Translations under genes and position numbers: made by a program
The notes under the pieces: generated by a model
What the model was told of the DNA's origin: nothing
The model's input: only the letters and a program-made list of their open reading frames with translations
Databases searched by the model: none
DNA from: a virus
Length of the DNA stretch: 64,000 bases
Reading direction: 5' to 3' (one strand)
UHGV virus genome: UHGV-0311442
In this document: one piece after another, positions 4,714 through 49,239 of the stretch
Numbering within the stretch: the stretch's first letter is position 1
How the letters are laid out: each line of letters starts with the position of its first letter

Positions 4714-5088
4714 TCAGACCGTTAGTTCTCCACATAACTCAACGTCGATACCGAACGTCATTCCCACTTCTTGAAGTTTGTTCGCCAGTAGGTGACGATG
4801 ACAAAACTTACCTGCGGGACAATAGCACATCAAAACCAAATCTTCGTGTCTAAGCAACGAGACCAACGTTTCGGCATCGGTATCTAACAGTCGTTCGAGT
4901 TTGTACAAATACTTTACCGTGTATTCACGCTCAGCGGCAGCGTCTTGGGCAGAATTTTTATACGCCATTAGGAAATCCCAGTCGGGGGCGAGTTCCTTTC
5001 GCCCTGACTTCACAGTGATATCCACTGCGTGAAATCCTTTTTGCTTAGCTAACCGCCACTTAGCGAGTTGTAGCGTCCAGATACGCAT
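4714..5088 (-). CDS. DUF488-like protein (124 aa)
   Basis: C-terminal LMCYCPAGKFCHRHLLA resembles the DUF488 signature; ATGA stop/start coupling with the upstream gene. Confidence 0.5.
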   Translation of the reverse strand: MRIWTLQLAKWRLAKQKGFHAVDITVKSGRKELAPDWDFLMAYKNSAQDAAAEREYTVKYLYKLERLLDTDAETLVSLLRHEDLVLMCYCPAGKFCHRHLLANKLQEVGMTFGIDVELCGELTV

Positions 5089-5288
5089 TAGGAACGAGTC
5101 TGCGATTCAGCCATCAGCGCACAACTTTTTACAGCCTGTGCATGAAGCTCTGTACCTGGTGTGTAATCCTTTATACAATCCTGATACAATTCACGTTTTG
5201 TTTCTAGAACACGATTATCGTACTCAGCACTTGCTAGTGCACCTGCGATAAGGATAAAAACTAGAATCGGCAACCAAATTTTCATCAT
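5088..5288 (-). CDS. Small membrane protein (66 aa), paralog A
   Basis: N-terminal TM helix IWLPILVFILIAGALA, then a domain with two Cys (YQDC...KSCAL). Confidence 0.55.
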   Translation of the reverse strand: MMKIWLPILVFILIAGALASAEYDNRVLETKRELYQDCIKDYTPGTELHAQAVKSCALMAESQTRS

Positions 5289-5494
5289 CCATCTCCCATA
5301 CGTTTAGCGTATTCCGTACACGCCATTACTAATTCGGCGTAACGTGGATTATCTACAGTAGTACCTGACATACATTCACGGTAAAGGGTCTCTCTACGTG
5401 ATTCGTCAGACGTCTTAACGTAGAACATCAGCATCGATACAATCAGCGCAGTTGAAACAATTGCCGAGATGATATATCCGTCATTTATTTTCAT
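5285..5494 (-). CDS. Small membrane protein (69 aa), paralog B
   Basis: TM helix IISAIVSTALIVSMLMF, then YREC...MACTEY; same architecture as 5088..5288. Confidence 0.55.
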   Translation of the reverse strand: MKINDGYIISAIVSTALIVSMLMFYVKTSDESRRETLYRECMSGTTVDNPRYAELVMACTEYAKRMGDG

Positions 5495-8041: not shown

Positions 8042-8087
8042 CTCTATATTCTCCTAATCATTAAAATAGCCGCAGTTGTAAAAAAGA

Positions 8088-10171: not shown

Positions 10172-10212
10172 CGTAAAAATAAATACTCCCTCTCTCCAAA
10201 CGGAGAGAGGGA
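10172..10212 (-). terminator. Rho-independent terminator
   Basis: Same stem as at 9122-9145 (CCCTCTCTCC/GGAGAGAGGG) plus T-run; after the stop of 10217..10723. Confidence 0.8.
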
Positions 10213-10216
10213 AAGT

Positions 10217-10998: not shown

Positions 10999-11772
10999 TT
11001 AAAAGATAAAATGGCCAGTTAATGCTTCTACTTCAACACCAGACATTGCTGGAGGTGCTGAGTATGGAAAAGTAAGACGCACGGTTGCACCCTTTAAATA
11101 CGCAATACGGCAGTATGCGGTCAAGAGCGCATTCCCGTAAGTACGGTCGTTATAGAAGAAACCTTCGGTTGCAAACGTCTTTTCGTTGATTTTCGAATAG
11201 ACTAAAATACCTTCAACTTTACCGTCTTTACGACAGCACAGCCCTTCGGCAGCCCCAATAGCTAACAATCCCAGGGAGTACGTATCCAAACTGACATTAG
11301 CCACCTTAGGAATCGTAAACGTTTCTTCTAACGTTAGAGATTCAATGTCAACTACATCAGGTAAATCGGTGGGAACTTCGGGTTCTTCAGTAAACGTCAG
11401 GTCATAGTCGATAGACGTCGGCTGCATACCCAAAAACGCCATTAACTGATCACGATGATTTAGGTCATTGGCAGGGTAGGCGACATCAAACATCTCCACA
11501 TTTAACAACCGTTTGAGTTGTGCGAAATTGATGTTCTTCTTCGCAAACACAACGATTGCTGACATGTAGAAAATCTTACCGTCAGTGCGGCCGGAGAAGA
11601 TTCCTTGCAGCTGATTCGTGTTCGAAAGAATGATAAAGGTCGGATCTTCAGATTCGCGAATGACGTCCTTTTCCAGTAACCCTTTCCGTACACGGGTTAG
11701 TGAAACCATTTTCCCGTCCACACCAATTGCTAAATGGTCATTACGATAATCGTGGATATCCACTATGCGCAT
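10999..11772 (-). CDS. Hypothetical protein (257 aa), translationally coupled to dam
   Basis: Start overlaps the dam stop by 1 nt. Confidence 0.6.
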   Translation of the reverse strand: MRIVDIHDYRNDHLAIGVDGKMVSLTRVRKGLLEKDVIRESEDPTFIILSNTNQLQGIFSGRTDGKIFYMSAIVVFAKKNINFAQLKRLLNVEMFDVAYPANDLNHRDQLMAFLGMQPTSIDYDLTFTEEPEVPTDLPDVVDIESLTLEETFTIPKVANVSLDTYSLGLLAIGAAEGLCCRKDGKVEGILVYSKINEKTFATEGFFYNDRTYGNALLTAYCRIAYLKGATVRLTFPYSAPPAMSGVEVEALTGHFIF

Positions 11773-12587
11773 TAGAGCACTCCCAGTAATTCAGTCACTG
11801 TTTTCCGAGCGGCACCAGACGCACCCATATAGCGACCAACTTCAATACTACGCCACTCAAAACCGTAATAAATTTCTCGGGTGAGTAGGGTGTCTGCATT
11901 TGACAAAACGACGCTGTTGCCACGTTCCACCTGCTGCTGTAGTAACTTGGCTAATTCACGATGATCCGTTTGTGAGAATTCTTTACGGTGGTATTGCGCA
12001 TGTTTCGCGGTATCCGATAACGGAATATAAGGAGGATCAGCATAAATCACGGCATCCTCAGGTGTCCGTGCTAATACAGAACGAAAGTCCTCACAAACAA
12101 TTTCCAGATACTCAACTTCTGCGCAACGTTTAGCCCAATCCCGAATTTCTTCTAATGGATAATAAACGCCGTTCGGGTAACGTCCAAACGGAACATTGAA
12201 CCCACCACTACTGTTATAACGACACATCCCGTTATAACCGTGACGCATTAAGTATAAAAACATTGCAGCACGTTCAACTTCGGTCATCGTTTTACCGCTA
12301 TTAAACAGTTCACGACGTTCCATATACTTTACAGTGGTATTGCCGTCTAAGAACAACGGTTGCGATGCAGCGATCAGTTCTTCAGGCTGTTCACGCGCAA
12401 CACAAAGTAAGCGTATCAAATCGGGGTTAGAATCCGATAGAATATACCGGCTGTAATTCGTATTTAGGAAAACAGACCCTGCGCCCACAAACGGTTCTAC
12501 AAAGGTTGTACGTTTAGGTAAGACCTTTTGTAATTCACCCAAAACGCGCGTTTTCCCACCCATCCATTTAATTATCGGTTTCCGCAT
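11772..12587 (-). CDS. dam: DNA adenine (N6) methyltransferase, Dam family
   Basis: KWMGGK, FVEPFVGAGSVFLNT..SRYIL.D.N.DLI (SAM-binding motif I), FLYLMRHGYNGMCRYN..GGFNVPFGRY, catalytic DPPY; closely resembles E. coli Dam throughout. Confidence 0.93.
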   Translation of the reverse strand: MRKPIIKWMGGKTRVLGELQKVLPKRTTFVEPFVGAGSVFLNTNYSRYILSDSNPDLIRLLCVAREQPEELIAASQPLFLDGNTTVKYMERRELFNSGKTMTEVERAAMFLYLMRHGYNGMCRYNSSGGFNVPFGRYPNGVYYPLEEIRDWAKRCAEVEYLEIVCEDFRSVLARTPEDAVIYADPPYIPLSDTAKHAQYHRKEFSQTDHRELAKLLQQQVERGNSVVLSNADTLLTREIYYGFEWRSIEVGRYMGASGAARKTVTELLGVL

Positions 12588-13566
12588 TATATCCGCCTTG
12601 TAACGATGACACTTCGTCGACTAACACCAATTTGACATGATTTTTCTGACGCTCCCAACTGACGACGTTTTCGTCACGCACTAAAACAAATTCGTATTCG
12701 TAGGGGCGGAATTTAAATAATTCGACGGCCAGGTGCCTGAATGCAGGGTTGTTATTGAAACACCCTATCTCTAATGGTGCCGCTGTTGTCGATGCAATTT
12801 GTAGAGCACGATACAATAAAGTCCGTCCGATACCACGACCCCGATGTGTCTCACTTACCGCAATGGCTTTTAATTCACATTCGTTAAGATTACGCAATTT
12901 AACTTGCACCGCGCCCACAACATCGTTGCCGTCCATCCAAACGTAGGTGTGGTGGTTGACATGACGTACTAACTCCACCAACGTTTCGACTTGTGGCATG
13001 ATTTGACGTGAGCGACTCACAGGGTCAGCGTTGATGTTTTCAACGACACTCGTACCCAAAAGCAACATAAGCTGTTCACGTTGTGCAGCGGTTAGCTCTT
13101 TATAAAAATCGCCGGAAATGTTCTTCACGTTTGTTGGTAGAGCGATATCCAATAACGAGCGTGTACCTAAACGATACGTAGTGTGGGTGTGTCTAAATCC
13201 TAAGTCATTAAGCTCAGCGATTTCTTCTACACCACTGGCGATTCGATTAAGATACGTAAAACCGGTATAGTCGAGTACCAGTAGCAGGTTCAGTTTGTTC
13301 AAACAACCCGGTACAATTTCATGCATATACAAACAGTGTAACGTTGGGTCGCCGTAAATGTGTTTTGTGATGATAAACCCTTGGATTGTTTTTCCTTTTT
13401 GTAAAGAGAACGTATTCAGTTCACTATTGCACAACGCCTCACGAATCACCGCGCCGTTAGGGCCCGATAAACATGCCTGAAGTTGAGGGTTGCGAATATC
13501 TCTACGTGCTAACCGACCTACTGTTAAATCCGTGGCGGTATGTTTTATAATCTTCATAAAAGCCAT
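12568..13566 (-). CDS. Two-domain protein with C-terminal GNAT acetyltransferase domain (332 aa)
   Basis: C-terminal GAVQV...IAVSETHRGRGIGRTLL matches GNAT motif A. Confidence 0.6.
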   Translation of the reverse strand: MAFMKIIKHTATDLTVGRLARRDIRNPQLQACLSGPNGAVIREALCNSELNTFSLQKGKTIQGFIITKHIYGDPTLHCLYMHEIVPGCLNKLNLLLVLDYTGFTYLNRIASGVEEIAELNDLGFRHTHTTYRLGTRSLLDIALPTNVKNISGDFYKELTAAQREQLMLLLGTSVVENINADPVSRSRQIMPQVETLVELVRHVNHHTYVWMDGNDVVGAVQVKLRNLNECELKAIAVSETHRGRGIGRTLLYRALQIASTTAAPLEIGCFNNNPAFRHLAVELFKFRPYEYEFVLVRDENVVSWERQKNHVKLVLVDEVSSLQGGYNAETDN

Positions 13567-13616
13567 GTTAATTACTCCTTAAAAGGTCGTCTCAAAACAA
13601 TACGCTAAAGTTGTAA

Positions 13617-13648
13617 AAACAAAAAAGAAAGGGGAACCGAAGTTCCCC
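13617..13648 (-). terminator. Rho-independent terminator
   Basis: Stem GGGGAAC/GTTCCCC, loop CGAA, then T-run on minus strand. Confidence 0.75.
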
Positions 13649-13660
13649 AATTATTAAACA

Positions 13661-14332
13661 TCATGCAGAAGGGGCAGAGTTTGTAAAAGCAAGATTGGGT
13701 GTCAAGCCAGCTTTCCCTAATTTTTCATACAGGTAATTGAAAAATCTGAGATGGGCGTCGTAGTGGCCAGCCGCTACTCGCTGACCGTAAACTTCTACCA
13801 AGTCAGGCGAAAACTTAATATGGCAGTTTTGTCTAGAGAACAAAGGTTGTTGCACCCCACCCTTAATTAAGATGCGATACTTTTTACCGTCGTCTGTTAC
13901 GGCGTGAAGAATATTTGTACTGAAATGGAAATAGATAGAAGGGTTAAAACACAACCAGGTGGCGGCAGTGATTAGTAAGTCAGCTAACTTAACAGCGATT
14001 TTGTCAAGTTCAGGCCCTTCAAACTTATGCATTAACCGCAGAAGAATTTCAGTAATAACCGTGCCTGTAAGTAATTTGTCTCTATTGAGACCAGGTGCAA
14101 CCGCCAAAACATCACCATTATAAGTGCAGACAAGTGTGAATAAGTTGAAAGGCTGGTCTTGATAAAGTTCGAAAACCAGGTCAGTATACGGGCTAAAAGT
14201 TAAGAATTTCACCCCGAGTATTTCATTAACGCAGGGTAAAAGCTCAACTTTCACAGGCGGTTGTGCTTCGTTAACTTTAGTCTCGTTCTTTACAGTTTCT
14301 TCAATTACAGTTTTACCAATTTTCGGTGGCAT
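13661..14332 (-). CDS. Hypothetical protein (223 aa)
   Basis: ORF; AAGGAG 9 nt upstream of the gene below. Confidence 0.6.
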   Translation of the reverse strand: MPPKIGKTVIEETVKNETKVNEAQPPVKVELLPCVNEILGVKFLTFSPYTDLVFELYQDQPFNLFTLVCTYNGDVLAVAPGLNRDKLLTGTVITEILLRLMHKFEGPELDKIAVKLADLLITAATWLCFNPSIYFHFSTNILHAVTDDGKKYRILIKGGVQQPLFSRQNCHIKFSPDLVEVYGQRVAAGHYDAHLRFFNYLYEKLGKAGLTPNLAFTNSAPSA

Positions 14333-14792: not shown

Positions 14793-14826
14793 AAATAAAA
14801 TATAGGTACCACCCAACGGTGGTACC
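14791..14826 (-). terminator. Rho-independent terminator
   Basis: Stem GGTACCACC/GGTGGTACC, loop CAAC, then T-run; after the tmk stop. Confidence 0.75.
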
Positions 14827-14833
14827 TAAGCGG

Positions 14834-15479: not shown

Positions 15480-15510
15480 TTTAGATAAAAGGGGTGTAAA
15501 AAACACCCCT
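15480..15510 (-). terminator. Rho-independent terminator
   Basis: Stem GGGGTGT/ACACCCC then T-run. Confidence 0.7.
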
Positions 15511-16134: not shown

Positions 16135-16169
16135 AATTTATCTCTCTTTAAATTGGTGAGTTACCGACT

Positions 16170-16202
16170 CACTACGGTTGTCACATTGATAATATCAATC
16201 TG
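16170..16202 (-). promoter_or_regulatory. Promoter-like motif, variant instance e
   Basis: Minus strand AGATTGATATTATCAATG-TGACA followed by inverted repeat GTGAGT..ACTCAC. Confidence 0.35.
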
Positions 16203-16217
16203 TAATAAAATTTAGGG

Positions 16218-16254
16218 TAAAAAAAAAGAAACCCGCCCCTACCGTTAAGTAGGG
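16218..16254 (-). terminator. Rho-independent terminator
   Basis: Stem CCCCTAC/GTAGGGG then a 9-nt T-run. Confidence 0.75.
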
Positions 16255-16262
16255 GTAAGGTT

Positions 16263-16868
16263 TTATTGGTGATCAACAATCGGACCACTCCACACTTCTG
16301 ACGTTTGTGGTGCGGTGAGGTTAGCAGCCTGTGCAGACGTTACGCACAGCAAGACTAACCCTTGTTTAGCAAGATAGTGTTGCATTCTTGCTGCCTCCAC
16401 GGAGGTGTCCACAATAACGAGCTCAGCGCCACGTAGAAGCGTTAGAGCCGCTTGTCCCTCCTGTGGCGTGGTTAAAGCATCACTGTCGTCCAGAATGCGT
16501 TTAAGGCGGTTATACGCCAACCCAGTTACATTACTCCGACCTGCACGAAGATCAACAACCATATCGTTATATTCCCCCACCACTTGTTGCGTCGAATTGG
16601 GATAAAATCGAAACGCGGCACGGCGGCGTTTACGACGCACCTCAGAAATCGCGCGTTGTAAAACCAGCAAAACGTATTTCGGTGCCGCTTCGCTATTCGG
16701 TCGACGCATCTTGGCTAAACGCGCAGCTAAATCCAAAATTTTCGTTAAGGGATAGCGATGTTTAAACCCGTCACGTTCGATAGTAACGCCACGTTTAGGC
16801 AACTTGCCCGTTTTGTTGATATACGATACTGTAATCAATAGTAATGAATCGAGAATCATCTCTGACAT
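16263..16868 (-). CDS. Hypothetical protein (201 aa)
   Basis: ORF. Confidence 0.55.
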   Translation of the reverse strand: MSEMILDSLLLITVSYINKTGKLPKRGVTIERDGFKHRYPLTKILDLAARLAKMRRPNSEAAPKYVLLVLQRAISEVRRKRRRAAFRFYPNSTQQVVGEYNDMVVDLRAGRSNVTGLAYNRLKRILDDSDALTTPQEGQAALTLLRGAELVIVDTSVEAARMQHYLAKQGLVLLCVTSAQAANLTAPQTSEVWSGPIVDHQ

Positions 16869-16882
16869 TACAAGGCCCTCTC

Positions 16883-17254
16883 TTAGAACCCCTCAAGAAC
16901 AGCTTTCACAAATTCGTAAACCGTGCGTCGGTGTTCTTCAAGCGGATAAACAAACTTAGAATAATCGTTGTTCCAGACAACCGGATAGAGGTCGCCATCA
17001 CAACTTAAATAGCTCTTACGAACCATGTAATAATCTAAACCTACACGGAAGTTTAACGACAGACTACCGTGTTTACTACAAACGTGTAACTGGAGCGATT
17101 TCACACCGTCGTGAGTTGGTGATTCAATCGTTTCCGCATACAATACATCCGAACACTGTTCTATAGCGCTAACGACATCTCTGAGGTTGTTGTCTGCATC
17201 GATGGTCGCTTTTCGGAGAGCGTCGGTGTATTGCTGAAGTTCTCGATAGAACAT
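16883..17254 (-). CDS. Hypothetical protein (123 aa)
   Basis: ORF; N-terminus overlaps the end of 17161..17793 by 94 nt. Confidence 0.45.
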   Translation of the reverse strand: MFYRELQQYTDALRKATIDADNNLRDVVSAIEQCSDVLYAETIESPTHDGVKSLQLHVCSKHGSLSLNFRVGLDYYMVRKSYLSCDGDLYPVVWNNDYSKFVYPLEEHRRTVYEFVKAVLEGF

Positions 17255-17793
17255 CCTGCTAATCTCCTGTCTCTACCGTATGGCAGAGGAAATGCTTTGT
17301 GTTCAAATTCTGCAACGACATACGCAGGATAGAACAAAAGGTATTTATAGAACGTAGACAACGTAACGTTTTTCTGGGTGGCTAAAAAGTAATTAAGATC
17401 GGGGTTGTCTGGAAAAGCAAAATGCAACCCTGTGTATACCTGACCTTTATACTCCCCATTAAAGGGTGTGACTGCACATCGTGGGTGTGTCGGCTCGACG
17501 TGTAACCAACGACTTCTTACGTGATAAACGCCACGGACTGTCGCGTTTCGTGTTTTACCCAAATAACGGCAACGGATATTCTTTTCCCACGCCGCACGTT
17601 GAGTGGGTGAACCCAGAGAAACAAACCGCGTTAAAGCTTCAGGTGTAAAGTAATCAAAAATGCCGGTCGGTAAACACCAACACGCTTTATCGATTCGTAC
17701 CACTCTCCAACCAGGACGAAAACCCACAGCGTAACGCTCTACACCAAAAGTATATCTAGACCCGTCATGAAACGGTACTAATCTTGCAGCCAT
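17161..17793 (-). CDS. Hypothetical protein (210 aa)
   Basis: ORF; C-terminal about 30 codons overlap the next gene. Confidence 0.5.
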   Translation of the reverse strand: MAARLVPFHDGSRYTFGVERYAVGFRPGWRVVRIDKACWCLPTGIFDYFTPEALTRFVSLGSPTQRAAWEKNIRCRYLGKTRNATVRGVYHVRSRWLHVEPTHPRCAVTPFNGEYKGQVYTGLHFAFPDNPDLNYFLATQKNVTLSTFYKYLLFYPAYVVAEFEHKAFPLPYGRDRRLAGCSIENFSNTPTLSEKRPSMQTTTSEMSLAL

Positions 17794-17794
17794 T

Positions 17795-18262
17795 TTAGAT
17801 TTCCTTTATCATTTCCCTGCATTCGGTACGGAATCCCATTTTCTCATACAAGGAGATAGCTTTAACGTTGTTGTCTAACACATCCAGACTCATCCAACCA
17901 CAACCTTTGGACTTTCCGTATTCACGAACTTTGTCCATAAGCGCACGTCCTACCCCTTGAGAACGTGCTTCGGGAATCACATAGTAGTTCCCAATATAAA
18001 CAAATGTGTCCTTCGAGCAAGAACCTATTGAGAACGTCATGAAACCCAGAAGTTGTTCGTTGTCATCCACGGCACACGCACAGAGATAATCTTGGGGCCA
18101 AATCTCTTCTAAGTGTTCAATTGGGTTGAACGTGTCGCGACCGGTTAACTGACTAATACGCACTTTTTCTTCTGCGAACAGCATGTTGTGCAGTTTGAGT
18201 ACCTGGTCGCCGTATAACTTTCCGTATTTACTGTCGGGTTTGAGAATAATAGTAATACGCAT
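17795..18262 (-). CDS. GNAT family acetyltransferase (155 aa)
   Basis: YVIPEARSQGVGRALM...GFR matches GNAT motifs A and B. Confidence 0.8.
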   Translation of the reverse strand: MRITIILKPDSKYGKLYGDQVLKLHNMLFAEEKVRISQLTGRDTFNPIEHLEEIWPQDYLCACAVDDNEQLLGFMTFSIGSCSKDTFVYIGNYYVIPEARSQGVGRALMDKVREYGKSKGCGWMSLDVLDNNVKAISLYEKMGFRTECREMIKEI

Positions 18263-19395
18263 TATTTAACCTCAATCAGCGACAACCTGCACCACACCAG
18301 TAACCCTTCCGCAACGCGCACTAACGAGGTAGTAAACGCATCTTCTAAACGCAGTGCGTTTTTATAACGTACGGTAGCGTCGCGTAACTCCCGCCCTTCA
18401 AGCGACTTAAGTTCCTTACGCATACGCTGAATTTCGTCATAAATTCCTGTATACCCTACACTACGTCGTTTCGCACCACGCTGACGTAACGCTCGGATAA
18501 TGTTTCTAACGGCGTCGAGTGCTGAACCGATTTCGTGCAAGTTCAGAGATTTGATTGTGTGGCCAAAATCACCGTCGCGAGCAATCGCCCACTCAATCTT
18601 ACCGTTGTTGTGTTCAACGACCACCACGTTACCTGGCCACGGGTATGCTTTCACCGTTTTAAACGGATCGATAATACCGAACAGCCCTGCGCTTCGTTTA
18701 ATCGCCCAGTTCGTTGACCGGCCCACTTTCTCCAAACCACTCTCGGTAACTTTCTTGCTCTTACCGATTAACGTACGTGTTTTAACAGTATACTCGTTGA
18801 CCATCGCATCCATTGCACTCAGGTTCTTACTGAACTCAATACATGCTTTTACGTTAGGCTTGTCTTCTAAACAAACTTTGGTTGTCCAACTTCCCGTGTC
18901 ACAGTCAACCGGTTCTAAAGTGTCCTTGATACCGAGTAAACTTAAACGTGCTTCTAACTTCTGTAGCTTGCGCTCTAACGACGATGCTTTGGACGTCGCT
19001 TCTTTCAGTTCATTAATAACTTCTTTACCGGCGGCTTCCGCGAAGTCGATAAAACGTAAGGCCAATTGCTTAGAATGTTTACCTGCGAATTTTCCAGACG
19101 CTTTGGCTCCCGCCACTGCTGCTTTTCCAGCAACGCGTCCAACTCCCTTAACCGCTCTGCCGGTCGCACGCGCGACCGCTTTACCTACCCCTGCGTAAGG
19201 CTCGGTGTCCGCAACAAATTGCGCGCGTTCCATCATCGCTGCAGACTCCAACGCAACGTGGACATCATCTAAAGCCCACCGTTTTCGGATAGCGACAACC
19301 GCCGGATAATTGTCTTTAACATTAAGCGATTCTAACGCGACCAAACGATCGTAGTCATCGCAAAGGACTTCTAAATCGGAATCTAATGTTGACAT
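18262..19395 (-). CDS. Hypothetical protein with Gly/Ala/Lys-rich segment (377 aa)
   Basis: ORF; low-complexity AGVGKAVARATGRAVKGVGRVAGKAAVAGAKASGK. Confidence 0.6.
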   Translation of the reverse strand: MSTLDSDLEVLCDDYDRLVALESLNVKDNYPAVVAIRKRWALDDVHVALESAAMMERAQFVADTEPYAGVGKAVARATGRAVKGVGRVAGKAAVAGAKASGKFAGKHSKQLALRFIDFAEAAGKEVINELKEATSKASSLERKLQKLEARLSLLGIKDTLEPVDCDTGSWTTKVCLEDKPNVKACIEFSKNLSAMDAMVNEYTVKTRTLIGKSKKVTESGLEKVGRSTNWAIKRSAGLFGIIDPFKTVKAYPWPGNVVVVEHNNGKIEWAIARDGDFGHTIKSLNLHEIGSALDAVRNIIRALRQRGAKRRSVGYTGIYDEIQRMRKELKSLEGRELRDATVRYKNALRLEDAFTTSLVRVAEGLLVWCRLSLIEVK

Positions 19396-19445
19396 CCTTT
19401 ACCCCATTTTAAGCTAAAGCGGGGAGAAGCCCGCCCTGACTAACT

Positions 19446-19994
19446 TCATAATAAGCGTAGGTCTTCTAACCACTTAGATGCATCCGTAACATGATAATAA
19501 CAAGGGATGTTCAGTGACTGTGCGTAGCGGACACCCATCGCCGTACCCCCTTTTGGATTTCCCTTTTTATCATGCTCAGCGTAATAATAGACGGCGTCTA
19601 CATGATCGTCCAAAGAATCACCTGATACAATATTTAAGTTTCGTCCATGCAACACCCAAGCTATTTCCGATAGCTTATCAGGATTAGGGTGAAGCGATGC
19701 CACAATCCCACGATAACGGACGTCTTGTGGAATAACGCGAAAATCCACATTCGGATGTAACTTACGTAACCACAACTTACGTTCGTCAGGCAAATAACAA
19801 ATATGTGGTCCTGGTTCAGTACGTGCTAACATAAACTGTAATTGGTCTGGTCCTTTGTAACAACCGCCTGACCGCGTTTCGATACTGTGCTGTTTATTAC
19901 GAAGAATTTTGAACCCGCGTTGCAACACATCCAACATTTCATGCATCGTGTCTTCGGGCGTTTCTCGAGAACCAATAATAGCAATTTTATACAT
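19446..19994 (-). CDS. SLOG/DprA-like Rossmann-fold protein (182 aa)
   Basis: N-terminal IAIIGSRE..., then SGG..G.D and a C-terminal segment laid out like the DprA/Smf nucleotide-binding domain; GGAGGTG 5 nt upstream. Confidence 0.45.
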   Translation of the reverse strand: MYKIAIIGSRETPEDTMHEMLDVLQRGFKILRNKQHSIETRSGGCYKGPDQLQFMLARTEPGPHICYLPDERKLWLRKLHPNVDFRVIPQDVRYRGIVASLHPNPDKLSEIAWVLHGRNLNIVSGDSLDDHVDAVYYYAEHDKKGNPKGGTAMGVRYAQSLNIPCYYHVTDASKWLEDLRLL

Positions 19995-20019: not shown

Positions 20020-20067
20020 AAGTGAAAAAAAAAGAAAGCAGGAGAGAACCTTTTCAGGGTTCTCTCC
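20020..20067 (-). terminator. Rho-independent terminator
   Basis: Stem GGAGAGAACC/GGTTCTCTCC then a 9-nt T-run. Confidence 0.8.
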
Positions 20068-20081
20068 TATCGGTGATGTTA

Positions 20082-21631: not shown

Positions 21632-22108
21632 CTAATAAATCTTATCCGCAACAGAGAGAAAGATGGGGGTGTTTTCAATAAAATCCACCAAATATCCTTC
21701 TTCCGGCGGGGCGTATGACGAATCAACGTTACTGTTCGTCATACGAAAATACCGACGGGAGTCACTGGCAATAAACCATCGGTCTATTTGGAAGCCTTTT
21801 TTGGAAAAGAAACACAGTCCGTCAATGTTTGAGGGATGCACACGACACATCACCATTTGACGATCTGAATTAAGTTGAACGTATTTCAGTAAAAAGGAAC
21901 CTACACCGCTACGACGAGAACCTTCGGCCACTACCAGATAGATAAGATTCCCCGGCTCCCAGATTGCAACCCCATGTGTAATATCATCTTCAACGGCCAA
22001 CGTAATTTTAACTGGCGTTTCTCGAATCGAATTTAAGTCTTTGACGTATTCACGTAATTCAGGAAATTTAGCGGAAATTTTGTCTTCGGTAATATCTAAC
22101 TGCTGCAT
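21632..22108 (-). CDS. GNAT family acetyltransferase (158 aa)
   Basis: VVAEGSRRSGVGSFLL...KKGF matches GNAT motif A. Confidence 0.75.
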   Translation of the reverse strand: MQQLDITEDKISAKFPELREYVKDLNSIRETPVKITLAVEDDITHGVAIWEPGNLIYLVVAEGSRRSGVGSFLLKYVQLNSDRQMVMCRVHPSNIDGLCFFSKKGFQIDRWFIASDSRRYFRMTNSNVDSSYAPPEEGYLVDFIENTPIFLSVADKIY

Positions 22109-22761
22109 TATTGTTCCCCTATCGATAAAACGTTTTTAACAAATTCATCCCACGTGGTGTTCCCACCAGAAGTAAATAAACTGCTAAGTGGAACGTTTCG
22201 ATGCTGTGGAATAATCGCATCGAGTTTCGTTACTGGAACTTCGGCCCATAAAGCCCAACCGTACAACCCCTCCACTGTTTTTCTCTCACCACGTAGGGAC
22301 GGCACCCACCAGGTAAACTGTATGAATCTTTTACCACGACAGATTTTAAGGCTGGTAGTAAAACCGTGGTCTAACATCCGAACGTCGTCAAACTTACAAT
22401 TAATCGAGAAAAGACCATAACGGGCAAGCAATCTCCTTATCTGTAACATTAGGTCGTTTTGGTATTTGTTCAGTGTGACAGTGTCTACAAAAACCTGTCC
22501 CTTCCCGACCCCAAACCCTTTCTTTTCTAAATGCTCCGCCATTAAGGCAGACGTACTCCCCTCTACACCCGGACAATCTAGACTGCCGGATAAAGGTACT
22601 GCACGATAATAGCGATGGAGCGTCTCTTGAAAAGCCGCCGTAACAATTTTTTCCTCTTTAACGAAATCAACAATTTCCCCATTGGAGGTGACCAACGGTC
22701 CAACCTTCAGATCCTGAATAGGTATCAGTAACGTTCTGGTCATTAAGCGTAATGGTTCCAC
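22108..22761 (-). CDS. Hypothetical protein; start reassigned to GTG at 22761
   Basis: In-frame GTG with AAGAAGGAG 7 nt upstream; the listed start at 22788 is also a non-ATG codon. Confidence 0.5.
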   Translation of the reverse strand: MEPLRLMTRTLLIPIQDLKVGPLVTSNGEIVDFVKEEKIVTAAFQETLHRYYRAVPLSGSLDCPGVEGSTSALMAEHLEKKGFGVGKGQVFVDTVTLNKYQNDLMLQIRRLLARYGLFSINCKFDDVRMLDHGFTTSLKICRGKRFIQFTWWVPSLRGERKTVEGLYGWALWAEVPVTKLDAIIPQHRNVPLSSLFTSGGNTTWDEFVKNVLSIGEQ

Positions 22762-22804
22762 AATAGCACTCCTTCTTTTAAGTCTCACAGTATGTTTAAA
22801 AATT

Positions 22805-22846
22805 GTAAAAATAAAAAGAAGTAACCTCTACCCGAAGGTAGAGGTT
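22805..22846 (-). terminator. Rho-independent terminator
   Basis: Stem AACCTCTACC/GGTAGAGGTT, loop CGAA, then T-run. Confidence 0.75.
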
Positions 22847-22850
22847 AATG

Positions 22851-23429
22851 TTATTTCGTTGTTGGGCTTTCTGTCTTCGACTTAAGCTGGCCTGATTTCT
22901 CAAGCTTCTTCTCAACAACTTTTGTGGCTATCTCAAGAGACTTATAAGCCAACGTTTTAATCGGCCAAGTCGCAAAAACAACCAATGCAAAGAACGGTAC
23001 CAATGTCACAATCAGAACATCTAAACTGTCTTCTGGAAAATGCTGGTGCGTGTCGTAACCCAGGAACCCGGTTACAATAACCGTCGCCAACGTCAGGAGG
23101 ACAATAATGAACTTCTGGGGACCGGCTAATTTCGGCCATAAGGTTAGCATGGTTTCTTTGCTAATCTCATCCCCTAGAGATTCCACAGCGTCAGTTGCCT
23201 GCTGATGGAATTGTTCTGATATTTTGCCTAAGTTATCGATTAGCGTCGGGCGTAAGTCGGAAAGAATCTTTGTTCCCGAACGGGTAACGTCAACGTCGAC
23301 GTCATCCCCATACGCCGCTTTCAAGAGTTTCGTTAACTGTTCAGACTGTTCTTTACTTAACTTTCTGTTTCCAGCTTGGATCAATAAGTCAAGTATTTCA
23401 GTGGGTAGTGCTTGTGTGCTCGGTTCCAT
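22851..23429 (-). CDS. Membrane protein with two TM helices (192 aa)
   Basis: Soluble N-terminal about 100 aa, then FIIVLLTLATVIVTGFLGY and VLIVTLVPFFALVVFATW. Confidence 0.6.
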   Translation of the reverse strand: MEPSTQALPTEILDLLIQAGNRKLSKEQSEQLTKLLKAAYGDDVDVDVTRSGTKILSDLRPTLIDNLGKISEQFHQQATDAVESLGDEISKETMLTLWPKLAGPQKFIIVLLTLATVIVTGFLGYDTHQHFPEDSLDVLIVTLVPFFALVVFATWPIKTLAYKSLEIATKVVEKKLEKSGQLKSKTESPTTK

Positions 23430-24073
23430 TATCGTTTTCTCCGACGCCTTCTCCGCCTGGAGGTCTTAGTCGACTTTTGTTTAGGCGGTAGCAGGCTGTT
23501 TAAGTTTAACAGATTTACCCTGACGAAAATATTTCCCACCGCCACAGCATCAATACTGTGCTCATCTAACGTTGTAATATCAAACAAAGCATGTTCGCGA
23601 TAGAGCTTGGTCACGGCCCGAAACATATCGGTTTTATCCGTCCCCTTCGCTTCCACCCCAACGAATGATTTTACAATGATAGGATTGAAGCCGTGTAAAA
23701 TTTTCTCCGGGTAAACGTCCCACAAAGTACGTCGCAACATTAATTGTAGTTCGACACCAGATTCATAAGCGGAGAGTTTTGCTCTCCGCATAAACGGTGT
23801 CTCTGTTGCAACGAAAGTTGGGCAGGCAATCCGAAGAAATTCACGGTAACAAGCTTCGAGCTTAACTAAACGATCGTCACGTTTACCGACACACTCTGCA
23901 AACGCATTTGGATGCGTTGGGTCTAATACATGCATGGTATCAGCCCAAACCACTTCGGCTTGATCGCTGCCGTATTCCCAATCCAATACTGCCATACCAA
24001 GATGGCTCGTACCGGGGTCTATTGCCGCGATTCTTACCATCTTATCTGGAAGTCTCGGCTCGGGTATCAACAT
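23429..24073 (-). CDS. RuvC-like Holliday junction resolvase with poly-Arg C-terminal tail
   Basis: RuvC catalytic layout: IAAIDPGTSHLG, VATETPF, DEHSIDAVAVG; C-terminus KTSRRRRRRRKR. Confidence 0.75.
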   Translation of the reverse strand: MLIPEPRLPDKMVRIAAIDPGTSHLGMAVLDWEYGSDQAEVVWADTMHVLDPTHPNAFAECVGKRDDRLVKLEACYREFLRIACPTFVATETPFMRRAKLSAYESGVELQLMLRRTLWDVYPEKILHGFNPIIVKSFVGVEAKGTDKTDMFRAVTKLYREHALFDITTLDEHSIDAVAVGNIFVRVNLLNLNSLLPPKQKSTKTSRRRRRRRKR

Positions 24074-48114: not shown

Positions 48115-48411
48115 CTATAACAGATAAGGTATACCTTCAAAGATAATCTCATCGTTAGCGAAGCCAACAGACGCTTCCTCGCCCCCAGATGTGGTTGCCC
48201 AAATCTCTGCCGCAAAACGCTGATTGTTAATCAACAGCCCACGGTTGTTTTCGAACAACACTATCAAGATCAACCTGACGCTTTTCTCTTGATGTAAACG
48301 ACGTATAAAGGCGTGCTTTACAGAGGAAGGATACCAGGTGAAGCGCGCTATTTTCCCTTTCGCAACTCTACCTAAAAAGAGCTTTTCTAAGGTTACAAAC
48401 TCAGTGCCCAT
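48115..48411 (-). CDS. Hypothetical protein (98 aa); start trimmed to ATG at 48411
   Basis: ORF downstream of the DHFR gene. Confidence 0.45.
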   Translation of the reverse strand: MGTEFVTLEKLFLGRVAKGKIARFTWYPSSVKHAFIRRLHQEKSVRLILIVLFENNRGLLINNQRFAAEIWATTSGGEEASVGFANDEIIFEGIPYLL

Positions 48412-48937
48412 CTCTTTTCCAAATCTGATAATGCCAACGCGGAACATCGCTATCCGGTTTGGAAGCGTGTGTTAAGTTATAAACCAAACTAAACTCGTTA
48501 CGATCGATTTCAGGAAAGAACGCATCTGCGCCATCGACTTTAACTTCTACGCGTGACAAGTAAATCTTATCCACGTAAGGTAACGCCTGATGGTAAATTT
48601 CTGCGCCGCCGATAATAAAGATTTCCTTAGGATAACCCTTTTTCTCAACCTCGGTTTTGAGGAATTCAATAATCGAACCCATTTCACCCTTAAGGTTAAG
48701 CACCCCATCGATTTCGGGCACACCACCAGGTCTTCTCGTTAACACGACATGGTGGCGATTTGGTAGGGGTTTATACCCTAACGATTCCCATGTCTTGCTT
48801 CCCATCACGATAACTTTACCTGATGTAAGTGCCTTAAAATTCTTTAAGTCATCGGGAATACGCCACGGCAGTTTATTGTCTTTCCCTATTTCGTTATTCA
48901 ATCCAGCAGCAGCTATCATCGAAACTGTAATTGTCAT
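48401..48937 (-). CDS. folA: Dihydrofolate reductase
   Basis: SMIAAAGLNNEIGKDNKLPW...VIVMGSKTWESLGYKPLPNRHHVVLTR...IGGAEIYHQALPYVDKIYLS; start set at MTITVSM, giving an ATGA overlap with the upstream stop. Confidence 0.88.
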   Translation of the reverse strand: MTITVSMIAAAGLNNEIGKDNKLPWRIPDDLKNFKALTSGKVIVMGSKTWESLGYKPLPNRHHVVLTRRPGGVPEIDGVLNLKGEMGSIIEFLKTEVEKKGYPKEIFIIGGAEIYHQALPYVDKIYLSRVEVKVDGADAFFPEIDRNEFSLVYNLTHASKPDSDVPRWHYQIWKRDGH

Positions 48938-49239
48938 TTCTTTATCTCCAGTGAGCCTCTTAAATGGCGTATAAAATCTTTTCGGGTATACCGGCTCGTT
49001 TTGTACTGATCGGCCAAATGGTAAACGGTAATATACCGCCCTTTGGCTTCCATATGCAAATGCGTTATATTGCCATCGTTCGTAGGGAGTGGCCTGATCA
49101 GTGGAATCATCAAATCCCCATTCCAACCAGGTTCATTAAGTCTCGGTATCAGTAATCGAATGTCTAGCCGTTTTACGCAGTACACCACATTACTTTCCGG
49201 CAACTTAACAACACATATCGCATCGGCTTTGAGTTTCAT
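48934..49239 (-). CDS. Hypothetical protein (101 aa)
   Basis: ORF coupled to DHFR. Confidence 0.55.
   Translation of the reverse strand: MKLKADAICVVKLPESNVVYCVKRLDIRLLIPRLNEPGWNGDLMIPLIRPLPTNDGNITHLHMEAKGRYITVYHLADQYKTSRYTRKDFIRHLRGSLEIKK

Follow-up and report, generated by a model that had tools for sequence, protein, structure and literature searches.

Are three phage genes that carry the motif A of GNAT acetyltransferases really members of this superfamily, and what might their products modify? The question is raised by UHGV virus genome UHGV-0311442, of which a stretch of 64,000 nucleotides (nt), referred to as the window, was analysed, and in which a first-pass annotation had noticed motif A in three separate open reading frames (ORFs), called A, B, and C in the following. 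Our analysis indicates with high probability that A, B, and C are functional genes, encoding three GNAT-fold acyl-coenzyme A (CoA) N-acyltransferases that diverged from one another long ago and are inherited as a syntenic set in an SPN3US-like phage. All three genes exist at the limits given by that annotation and are encoded on the minus strand (protein lengths in amino acids, aa):

12568-13566, minus strand: ORF A, 332 aa, predicted tandem GNAT, orthologue of SPN3US gp104
17795-18262, minus strand: ORF B, 155 aa, single-domain GNAT, orthologue of SPN3US gp95, motif A at 17948-17965
21632-22108, minus strand: ORF C, 158 aa, predicted divergent GNAT, orthologue of SPN3US gp88 (PDB 7DQG), motif A at 21899-21916

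Each ORF contains exactly one match to the pattern [RQ]xxGx[GA], which is RGRGIG at aa 242 of A, RSQGVG at aa 100 of B, and RRSGVG at aa 65 of C. By itself this motif is weak evidence, because in the window it also occurs in nine of 75 six-frame ORFs that are 100 aa or longer. Profile comparison, however, identifies the three as genes of the GNAT superfamily. Pfam Acetyltransf_1 matches aa 198-280 of A with 47.9 bits (cut-off 20.7), and B exceeds the cut-offs of Acetyltransf_1 (70.9 bits), Acetyltransf_7 (53.7 bits), and Acetyltransf_10 (41.4 bits). Among the PHROG families, 8663 covers A over its full length (E 3.5e-47), 3810 matches B (E 1.6e-44), and 7861, annotated as ‘acetyltransferase’, matches C end to end (E 1.7e-70). 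In addition to the profile score above a curated threshold, A has motif A in the loop between β4 and α3 and a GNAT fold in an AlphaFold2 (AF2) model, and B combines its profile scores with motif A. The glycyl residues that bind pyrophosphate are invariant in all three families, and no further GNAT match was found among 40 other ORFs of the window that were scanned. In GNATs the R-x-x-G-x-G loop between β4 and α3 grips the pyrophosphate of acetyl-CoA, and its presence in each ORF leads us to infer the probable chemistry, in which an acetyl or another acyl group would be transferred from CoA to a primary amine.

In pairwise comparison none of A, B, and C resembles another (phmmer E >= 0.86), and profile methods alone connect them, so they represent ancient, separate lineages. 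A recent duplication or expansion of A, B, and C was considered and rejected on these E values.

When the window is compared with INPHARED by megablast (at least 85% identity), the sole match is 122 bp long and lies in Erwinia phage Asesino; judged by this short match, the window belongs to a new, previously unsequenced lineage of SPN3US-like jumbo phages. With tblastn, 48, 61, and 62 phage records match A, B, and C, respectively, almost all of them SPN3US-like jumbo phages of Salmonella, Erwinia, Escherichia, Proteus, and Cronobacter, and an acetyltransferase annotation is already present for these genes in about 50-60 related phage genomes. Gene order corresponds one-to-one with that of SPN3US, C being equivalent to gp88 (61% identity; preceded by gp87), B to gp95 (48%; preceded by gp94), and A to gp104 (30%; followed by the Dam gene gp105), and SPN3US gp104, gp95, and gp88 all carry a GNAT or acetyltransferase annotation. 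Synteny and orthology were also checked against phages phiEaH2, Caitlin, Asesino, and Kwan. The nearest relative, metagenome contig L007 (ENA ERZ28629423 scaffold_16, 225 kb), encodes all three proteins in the same order with 93-98% identity, and A, B, and C are under purifying selection, with ratios of non-synonymous to synonymous substitution (dN/dS) of 0.10, 0.05, and 0.07 in comparison with this contig. A fragment 89% identical to ORF A is found in the databases under the name ‘GNAT family N-acetyltransferase, partial [Escherichia coli]’, a label that hints at an E. coli host or at a contaminant.

The first-pass annotation had correctly described the motif of A as part of the C-terminal domain of a larger protein encoded directly upstream of dam, but it missed what seems to be a second GNAT fold in the N-terminal half. 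The two predicted domains are located as follows:

13168-13527, minus strand: N-terminal GNAT-fold domain of ORF A (predicted), aa 14-133, without motif A
12625-13128, minus strand: C-terminal GNAT domain of ORF A, aa 147-314, with motif A (RGRGIG) at 12826-12843

Since a word-indexed search with ORF A or with a four-sequence profile gave only four close relatives, SPN3US gp104 was then used as a bridge query, and the AF2 model was built from a nine-sequence alignment. The model has a predicted local distance difference test score (pLDDT) of 80 and a predicted template modelling score (pTM) of 0.73. In it, aa 14-133 follow the order b1-a1-a2-b2-b3-b4-a3-b5-a4-b6 typical of GNATs, although the pattern [RQ]xxGx[GA] is absent from the N-terminal half of ORF A. 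The best 50 PDB matches in a Foldseek search with this model are all two- or multi-domain proteins of the GNAT family, and the model thus points to two GNAT folds in one polypeptide. The C-terminal domain, which aligns with the ORF B family (hhalign 93%, E 4e-7) and in which G245, I246, and G247 are invariant in nine family members, is likely the catalytic one. In the gp104 family, recognised here as a probable tandem GNAT, it is the motif-less domain that is better conserved, with 20% invariant columns in the ORF A alignment versus 15% in the catalytic core, and these invariant residues concentrate in G72-D-P-x-L-x-C-x-Y-x-x-E83 and L96-x-L-D-x-T-G-F103. By analogy with MshD-type enzymes, the N-terminal domain probably forms the face that binds the acceptor. 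ORF A itself is not an MshD, as NCBIfam TIGR03448 matches it only at aa 157-283 and with 19.9 bits (cut-off 163.1).

ORF A lies between two genes that bear on its possible role, and together with one of them it seems to form an exchangeable unit:

11772-12587, minus strand: gene for a Dam-type N6-adenine DNA methyltransferase (PF02086, E 3.4e-57), overlapping A by 20 nt
13661-14332, minus strand: 223-aa gene that co-varies and co-occurs with ORF A
12550-14293: mosaic (putative allelic replacement) cassette of the 223-aa gene and ORF A, ~2 kb

The Dam of the window is 67% identical to SPN3US gp105, the adjacency of GNAT and dam is kept in SPN3US, Caitlin, Kwan, L007, and L008, a 27-kb relative, and through their overlap A would be translationally linked to Dam. 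On the other side, ORF A has a co-varying neighbour which the first-pass annotation had missed; the 223-aa protein does not look like an antitoxin and has no match in Pfam, PHROG, or PADLOC. Backbone proteins of L008 are 82-95% identical to those of the window (helix-turn-helix (HTH) protein 91%, Dam 82%, 257-aa protein 89%), whereas ORF A and the 223-aa protein are only 42% and 39% identical, and at the DNA level identity is ~84% outside the cassette and ~50% inside. It falls sharply at ~14293, at the start of the 223-aa gene, remains at ~50% through ORF A, and then rises again by degrees over the 5' half of dam. The Erskineviruses phiEaH2 and Asesino lack both the ORF A orthologue and the 223-aa gene and have kept dam, and in a comparison of 22 syntenic genes with SPN3US, ORF A belongs to the three with the greatest divergence. 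Because recent dN/dS is low, allelic replacement of a two-gene accessory module seems to fit this pattern better than fast evolution in situ. A and its upstream neighbour would then be part of an exchangeable accessory cassette, swapped as a unit between otherwise near-identical genomes, a pattern that usually marks genes for interaction with the host.

For ORF B, a neighbouring gene has to be introduced as well:

18262-19395, minus strand: phiKZ-type internal head protein gene (PF12699, 30 bits; PHROG 2497 ‘internal head protein’, E 5e-74)

The family of B is the one for which enzymatic data have been published. Candidate phage spermidine N-acetyltransferases were expressed in an E. coli BL21 delta-speG background, and N-acetylspermidine was made by YP_007237670 of phiEaH2 and YP_009292176 of Caitlin (Li et al. 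2023; PMC9992855). These two proteins and YP_009153389 of SPN3US are positional orthologues of B (50%, 46%, and 48% identity, respectively), the relation to the active enzymes being given by full-length identity and the same syntenic position. Of the earlier suggestion that host proteins, tRNAs, or small molecules might be modified, the small-molecule part gains backing, for the ORF B family, from these spermidine data on two orthologues (PMC9992855). In sequence searches of the PDB, B matches 26 GNAT chains at E <= 1e-3, the best being human SSAT2 (2bei, E 5e-10), a nourseothricin acetyltransferase, AAC(6')-Iy, and the polyamine acetyltransferase DpA. Glu92 and Tyr140 of SSAT have catalytic roles, and Tyr139 of B, the putative general acid, which aligns with the latter, is invariant in the alignment. 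B thus most likely acetylates a polyamine-like amine, and activity with spermidine is plausible.

ORF C is coupled to the gene upstream of it:

22108-22788, minus strand: gp87-like gene, 226 aa, with its stop codon overlapping the start of ORF C; terminator at 22822-22847 and TTTTTACAAT element at 22802-22811

PDB chain 7DQG matches C with 61% identity (E 1.4e-61), and the aligned part of this chain (153 residues) is 100% identical to SPN3US gp88; the chain is deposited as ‘putative acetyltransferase’, and no paper is indexed for it. C accordingly belongs to the gp88/7DQG family. This family aligns with that of B (hhalign 85%, E 6e-6, 85 columns) with motif A in register, further matches of C are PDB 3ld2 (E 1e-3) and NCBIfam PRK10562 (E 4e-4), and all four of the four family members compared have R-x-x-G-x-G/A with variation only as the consensus allows (RRSGVG, RRGGVG, RECGAG, and RRQGVA). 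On this remote homology to bona fide GNATs, C appears to be a divergent member of the superfamily. It is also among the best-conserved non-structural genes of its block, being 61% identical to its counterpart in SPN3US and 67% to that in Asesino versus a block median of ~50%. The coupled pair shows a strongly asymmetric divergence: the gp87-like protein shares just 24% identity with SPN3US gp87, and no match could be detected for it in Asesino, Kwan, and Caitlin, where ORF C is 45-67% identical.

Several observations weigh against the reading of A, B, and C as functional N-acyltransferases, or against the substrate proposed for B. Around aa 280 of A (HLA), a position at which GNATs usually have a Tyr as general acid, Ala is present in the window clade and Phe in the L008 allele, Tyr is kept in the SPN3US clade, and alleles of ORF A may differ in catalytic mechanism or competence. 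The best full-length fold matches of A are tandem GNATs, but with a global template modelling (TM) score of only 0.41-0.48, so the packing of its domains either differs or is mis-modelled. C stays below the Pfam threshold, with Acetyltransf_7 as best match (22.9 bits against a gathering score of 27), and its AF2 model, made from a single sequence, is unusable (pLDDT 42.5). B reaches no curated equivalog threshold of NCBIfam, scoring 51.2 bits with rimI TIGR01575 (cut-off 86.4) and 26 bits with PaiA (cut-off 250). At the position aligned with Glu92 of SSAT, His is found in phiEaH2, Caitlin, Asesino, and Kwan, Tyr in SPN3US, and Gly91 in B, and the SPN3US protein YP_009153389 did not make N-acetylspermidine (PMC9992855). 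Of the functions considered for B, polyamine acetylation has the best support, but the assignment is not secure, because the SPN3US orthologue is inactive on spermidine and because B has Gly91 instead of His. The residue aligned with Glu92 may matter for activity: His, Tyr, and Gly at this one position of the B family track two positive and one negative published assay, and differences in polyamine activity would be expected among family members.

How do other explanations compare? That the motifs are chance matches in ORFs unrelated to acetyltransferases would be in line with their frequency among six-frame ORFs and with the sub-threshold Pfam score of C, but it finds no support in profile comparison and is already refuted for A and B, so that its probability is next to negligible. 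A reuse of the fold has a precedent in jumbo phages, as the C-terminal domain of chimallin is a GNAT fold in non-enzymatic use (PMC9365700), and at least one of the three proteins might likewise be a catalytically dead GNAT fold serving a structural purpose; the missing general-acid Tyr in the window clade of A and its N-terminal domain without motif A would agree with this. Yet the pyrophosphate-binding glycines are invariant in the three families, many active GNATs have no dedicated general acid or base, and we consider a dead fold improbable. In two virion-proteome papers on SPN3US, gp88, gp95, and gp104 are unmentioned in the main texts, and supplementary data gave no virion evidence for them. 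A type II GNAT toxin such as TacT, AtaT, or KacT, acetylating aminoacyl-tRNA, is brought to mind by the sizes of B and C (155-158 aa) and by the co-varying gene upstream of A. The earlier statement that no antitoxin-like gene is adjacent, and that a toxin-antitoxin pair is unlikely, nevertheless holds: the neighbours of A, B, and C encode proteins of 159-377 aa without ribbon-helix-helix, DUF1778, or other antitoxin-type domains, there is no space for a hidden gene at B and C and only 94 nt upstream of A, PADLOC gives no match, no toxin-family profile matches the three proteins, and GNAT toxins are absent among the listed fold matches of A. That one or more of the three genes encode such a toxin is thus barely credible.

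Substrates other than those favoured above deserve more attention in the case of B and A. B might acetylate a protein and not a polyamine; the substrate could be, for example, the internal head protein with which it is co-translated (at lysines or at the N-terminus) or, in a RimI-like manner, a host ribosomal protein. The negative spermidine result for the SPN3US orthologue, Gly91 in place of the His of the active enzymes, and rimI as the top (sub-threshold) NCBIfam match would be compatible with this, as would the junction TAATG, in which the internal head protein gene ends and the ATG of B begins, since start/stop overlap or close coupling of these two genes recurs in SPN3US, phiEaH2, Asesino, and Kwan. 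SPN3US gp94, the orthologue of the internal head protein, was detected in heads (PMC10052503), and roles like those of GNATs acting on ribosomal proteins have been proposed for some jumbo-phage GNATs (Iyer et al., PMC7824862). On the other hand, two orthologues with 46-50% identity acetylate spermidine, the PDB entries that match best are acetyltransferases for diamines, polyamines, and aminoglycosides, and the rimI score is 35 bits under its threshold; a protein substrate for B is somewhat unlikely, though well worth keeping in mind. The overlap of A with dam (20 nt in both the window and L007, 8 nt in L008) and the conservation of the pair could suggest that A modifies DNA together with Dam, by adenine acylation as in Mom or similarly, and tRNA-dependent tandem-GNAT enzymes are among the distant fold matches of A. 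Mom is indeed a DNA-modifying enzyme with a GNAT fold, but it consists of a single GNAT domain with an HTH-like insertion and is not a tandem protein (PMC13219725). No insertion of this type is seen in the AF2 model of ORF A, no Mom-like profile of Pfam, NCBIfam, or PHROGs matches A, its intact motif A of the acetyl-CoA type points to a CoA donor, and dam is kept without ORF A in phiEaH2 and Asesino. A Mom-like identity of A was judged unlikely, and a DNA-modifying role is very improbable.

A further proposal for A takes the cassette as its starting point and sees in ORF A and the 223-aa gene a module for anti-defence or host specificity, in which the tandem GNAT would acetylate a variable host target and would for this reason be replaced between relatives. 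Proteins 39-42% identical on a backbone of 82-95%, the sharp boundary of the ~2-kb cassette, the joint absence of the pair from Erskineviruses, and the rank of ORF A among the most diverged syntenic genes all point in this direction. Among GNATs with roles of this kind, AcrVA5 acetylates and thereby inactivates Cas12a, and VipF, which also appears among the fold matches of A, is a bacterial effector with tandem-GNAT architecture. In contrast, no known anti-defence protein shows homology, the recent dN/dS of A is, at 0.10, low, a terminator-like hairpin lies between the two genes, and the conserved neighbour is dam and not one of the known counter-defence genes; as it stands, the proposal is unlikely.

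A related idea concerns the genes that flank the GNAT-dam pair, among them the following:

10999-11772, minus strand: gp106-like gene, 257 aa, PHROG 9941, start/stop-coupled to dam, with a possible but unconfirmed cryptic GNAT-like fold

The gp106-like protein is 24% identical to SPN3US gp106 and 23% to phiEaH2 gp029. In a Foldseek comparison with BFVD, the model of ORF A matched uncharacterised proteins of related phages over 250-300 alignment columns (phiEaH2 J7KKF1 with 256 aa, two from Kwan with 276 and 215 aa, and one from Huxley with 214 aa; range 214-278 aa). These lengths equal those of the genes flanking the GNAT-dam pair, to which the entries are assigned by length only, and the 276-aa Kwan match, for instance, is as long as the gene downstream of Kwan dam. 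The flanking genes may thus encode cryptic GNAT-fold paralogues, an idea drawn only from Foldseek matches to unnamed BFVD entries assigned by length. Comparisons with the ORF A family by hhalign are not significant for gp106-like (E 0.11), gp103-like (E 0.019), and gp107-like (E 0.34) proteins, and jackhmmer started with the N-terminal domain of ORF A returns its own orthologues only. In the Kwan genome (L006), where the regions in question are 16154-19887 and 21846-22465, a row of five uncharacterised genes of ~210-260 aa lies upstream of its GNAT gene. If the idea is true, the flanking cryptic folds would make up a hidden cluster of acyltransferase-fold genes. A combined scenario, with a mobile, lineage-variable module of the 223-aa gene and A beside dam, in which A would acetylate a fast-changing target in the host (a defence protein, for instance, or a host-specific factor) and the partner would help or regulate it, and with gp103, gp106, and gp107 families as cryptic GNAT-fold paralogues in such a cluster, is speculative and on balance unlikely.

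When would these N-acyltransferase genes be expressed? They had been attributed to an early region, which is not established, because the block has virion genes on its flanks and B is start/stop-coupled to an internal head protein gene. A tail-fibre gene and virion structural genes form the limits of the block, the internal head protein gene lies inside it, and all genes between 291 and 27683 are on one strand. Candidate regulatory features are:

13567-13660, minus strand: intergenic region upstream of ORF A, 94 nt, with hairpin (13631-13648) and T-run, TTTTTACAAC (13610-13619), and ribosome-binding site AAGGAG
13610-13619, minus strand: promoter-like element, T-rich tract ending in TTAC(AAC), as are the next four
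22802-22811, minus strand: promoter-like element
8075-8084, minus strand: promoter-like element
15493-15502, minus strand: promoter-like element
40588-40597, minus strand: promoter-like element
13631-13648: hairpin, predicted strong terminator with T-run, as are the next four
22822-22847: hairpin
14803-14828: hairpin
20039-20069: hairpin
10186-10213: hairpin

The shared intergenic design consists of a GC hairpin with a T-run, followed directly by a T-rich tract that ends in TTAC(AAC). Allowing at most one mismatch, the 10-mer TTTTTACAAC occurs 15 times in the window versus 6.5 +/- 2.6 times in shuffled sequences, and six of the 15 copies are in non-coding DNA, which makes up 8% of the window. 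One copy lies 43 nt upstream of the ATG of ORF A and another heads the pair of gp87-like gene and C; directly upstream of B no such element is found. The arrangement of hairpin and TTTTTTGTCTTTTTAC also occurs upstream of SPN3US gp104 and Caitlin gp115, and the hairpin/T-rich design is conserved upstream of SPN3US gp104 and gp87 and of their counterparts in Caitlin and phiEaH2. In the window, neither matches to sigma-70-type promoters (16 versus 23 expected) nor the bare 7-mer TTTTTAC (17 versus 21) are enriched. The T-rich/TTAC elements that precede A and the pair of gp87-like gene and C are suggestive of, and compatible with, early promoters of a virion RNA polymerase (RNAP), and the complete design is a candidate for an early (virion-RNAP) promoter motif of this phage group.

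Elsewhere in the window, a few further features were noted:

4714-5088: DUF488-N3a protein (E 4e-12)
23429-24073: 214-aa protein, of which the Kwan orthologue is annotated as RuvC-like
48401-49126: dihydrofolate reductase, DHFR domain at aa 68-223, N-terminal extension of ~67 aa

A 392-nt gap in the ORF map (5089-5480) appears to encode two short peptides with hydrophobic starts and similar, Cys-containing C-terminal halves, which may be unannotated small membrane or secreted proteins.

Much of what is described for A, B, and C is ordinary, since the three genes are common to known relatives, in which they are already annotated as acetyltransferases, and since assays exist for one of the families and a structure has been deposited for another. 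The only part with real upside is the ORF A cassette, which could point to a new phage effector.

Comparison with known systems places the three proteins as follows. The GNAT toxins AtaT, TacT, and KacT share the GNAT fold and have a size like that of B and C, but A, B, and C differ from them in having no antitoxin-type neighbour, no toxin profile or proximity of fold, and no match in the defence library. Rac of phiKMV-like phages is a GNAT that causes cleavage of the α subunit of RNAP (PMC7552054) and has been invoked as a model for jumbo-phage GNATs (Iyer et al., PMC7824862). Like it, the GNATs of the window are phage-encoded and might serve host takeover; no specific similarity to Rac was looked for or seen, and SPN3US-like phages bring their own RNAPs, and shutting down the host RNAP is therefore a different problem for them. 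B resembles the active enzymes of phiEaH2 and Caitlin in length, in its place after the internal head protein gene, in motif A, and in the invariant Tyr139, and differs from them by Gly91 instead of His. With SSAT2/thialysine acetyltransferase (2bei) and DpA (8a9n/8a9o; 8a9o E 1e-6) it has in common motif A and the Tyr aligned with Tyr140 of SSAT, whereas the Gly at the Glu92-aligned position separates it from the group of SSAT2, DpA, SpeG, and PaiA. C is like SPN3US gp88 (7DQG) in its full-length identity of 61%, in the same overlap with the upstream gene, and in synteny, and as a family below the Pfam threshold it stands as a divergent branch of the GNATs. A, finally, may be compared with the tandem GNATs MshD (1ozp, 2c27), VipF of Legionella (6wqb, 7wx5), ORF14 of clavulanic acid biosynthesis (2wpw), and MAB_4324 (7q3a), with which it shares only 9-16% sequence identity and from which its modelled inter-domain geometry departs, as the global TM scores indicate; unlike these, it is phage-encoded and dam-linked, and the conserved patch of its N-terminal domain is a different one.

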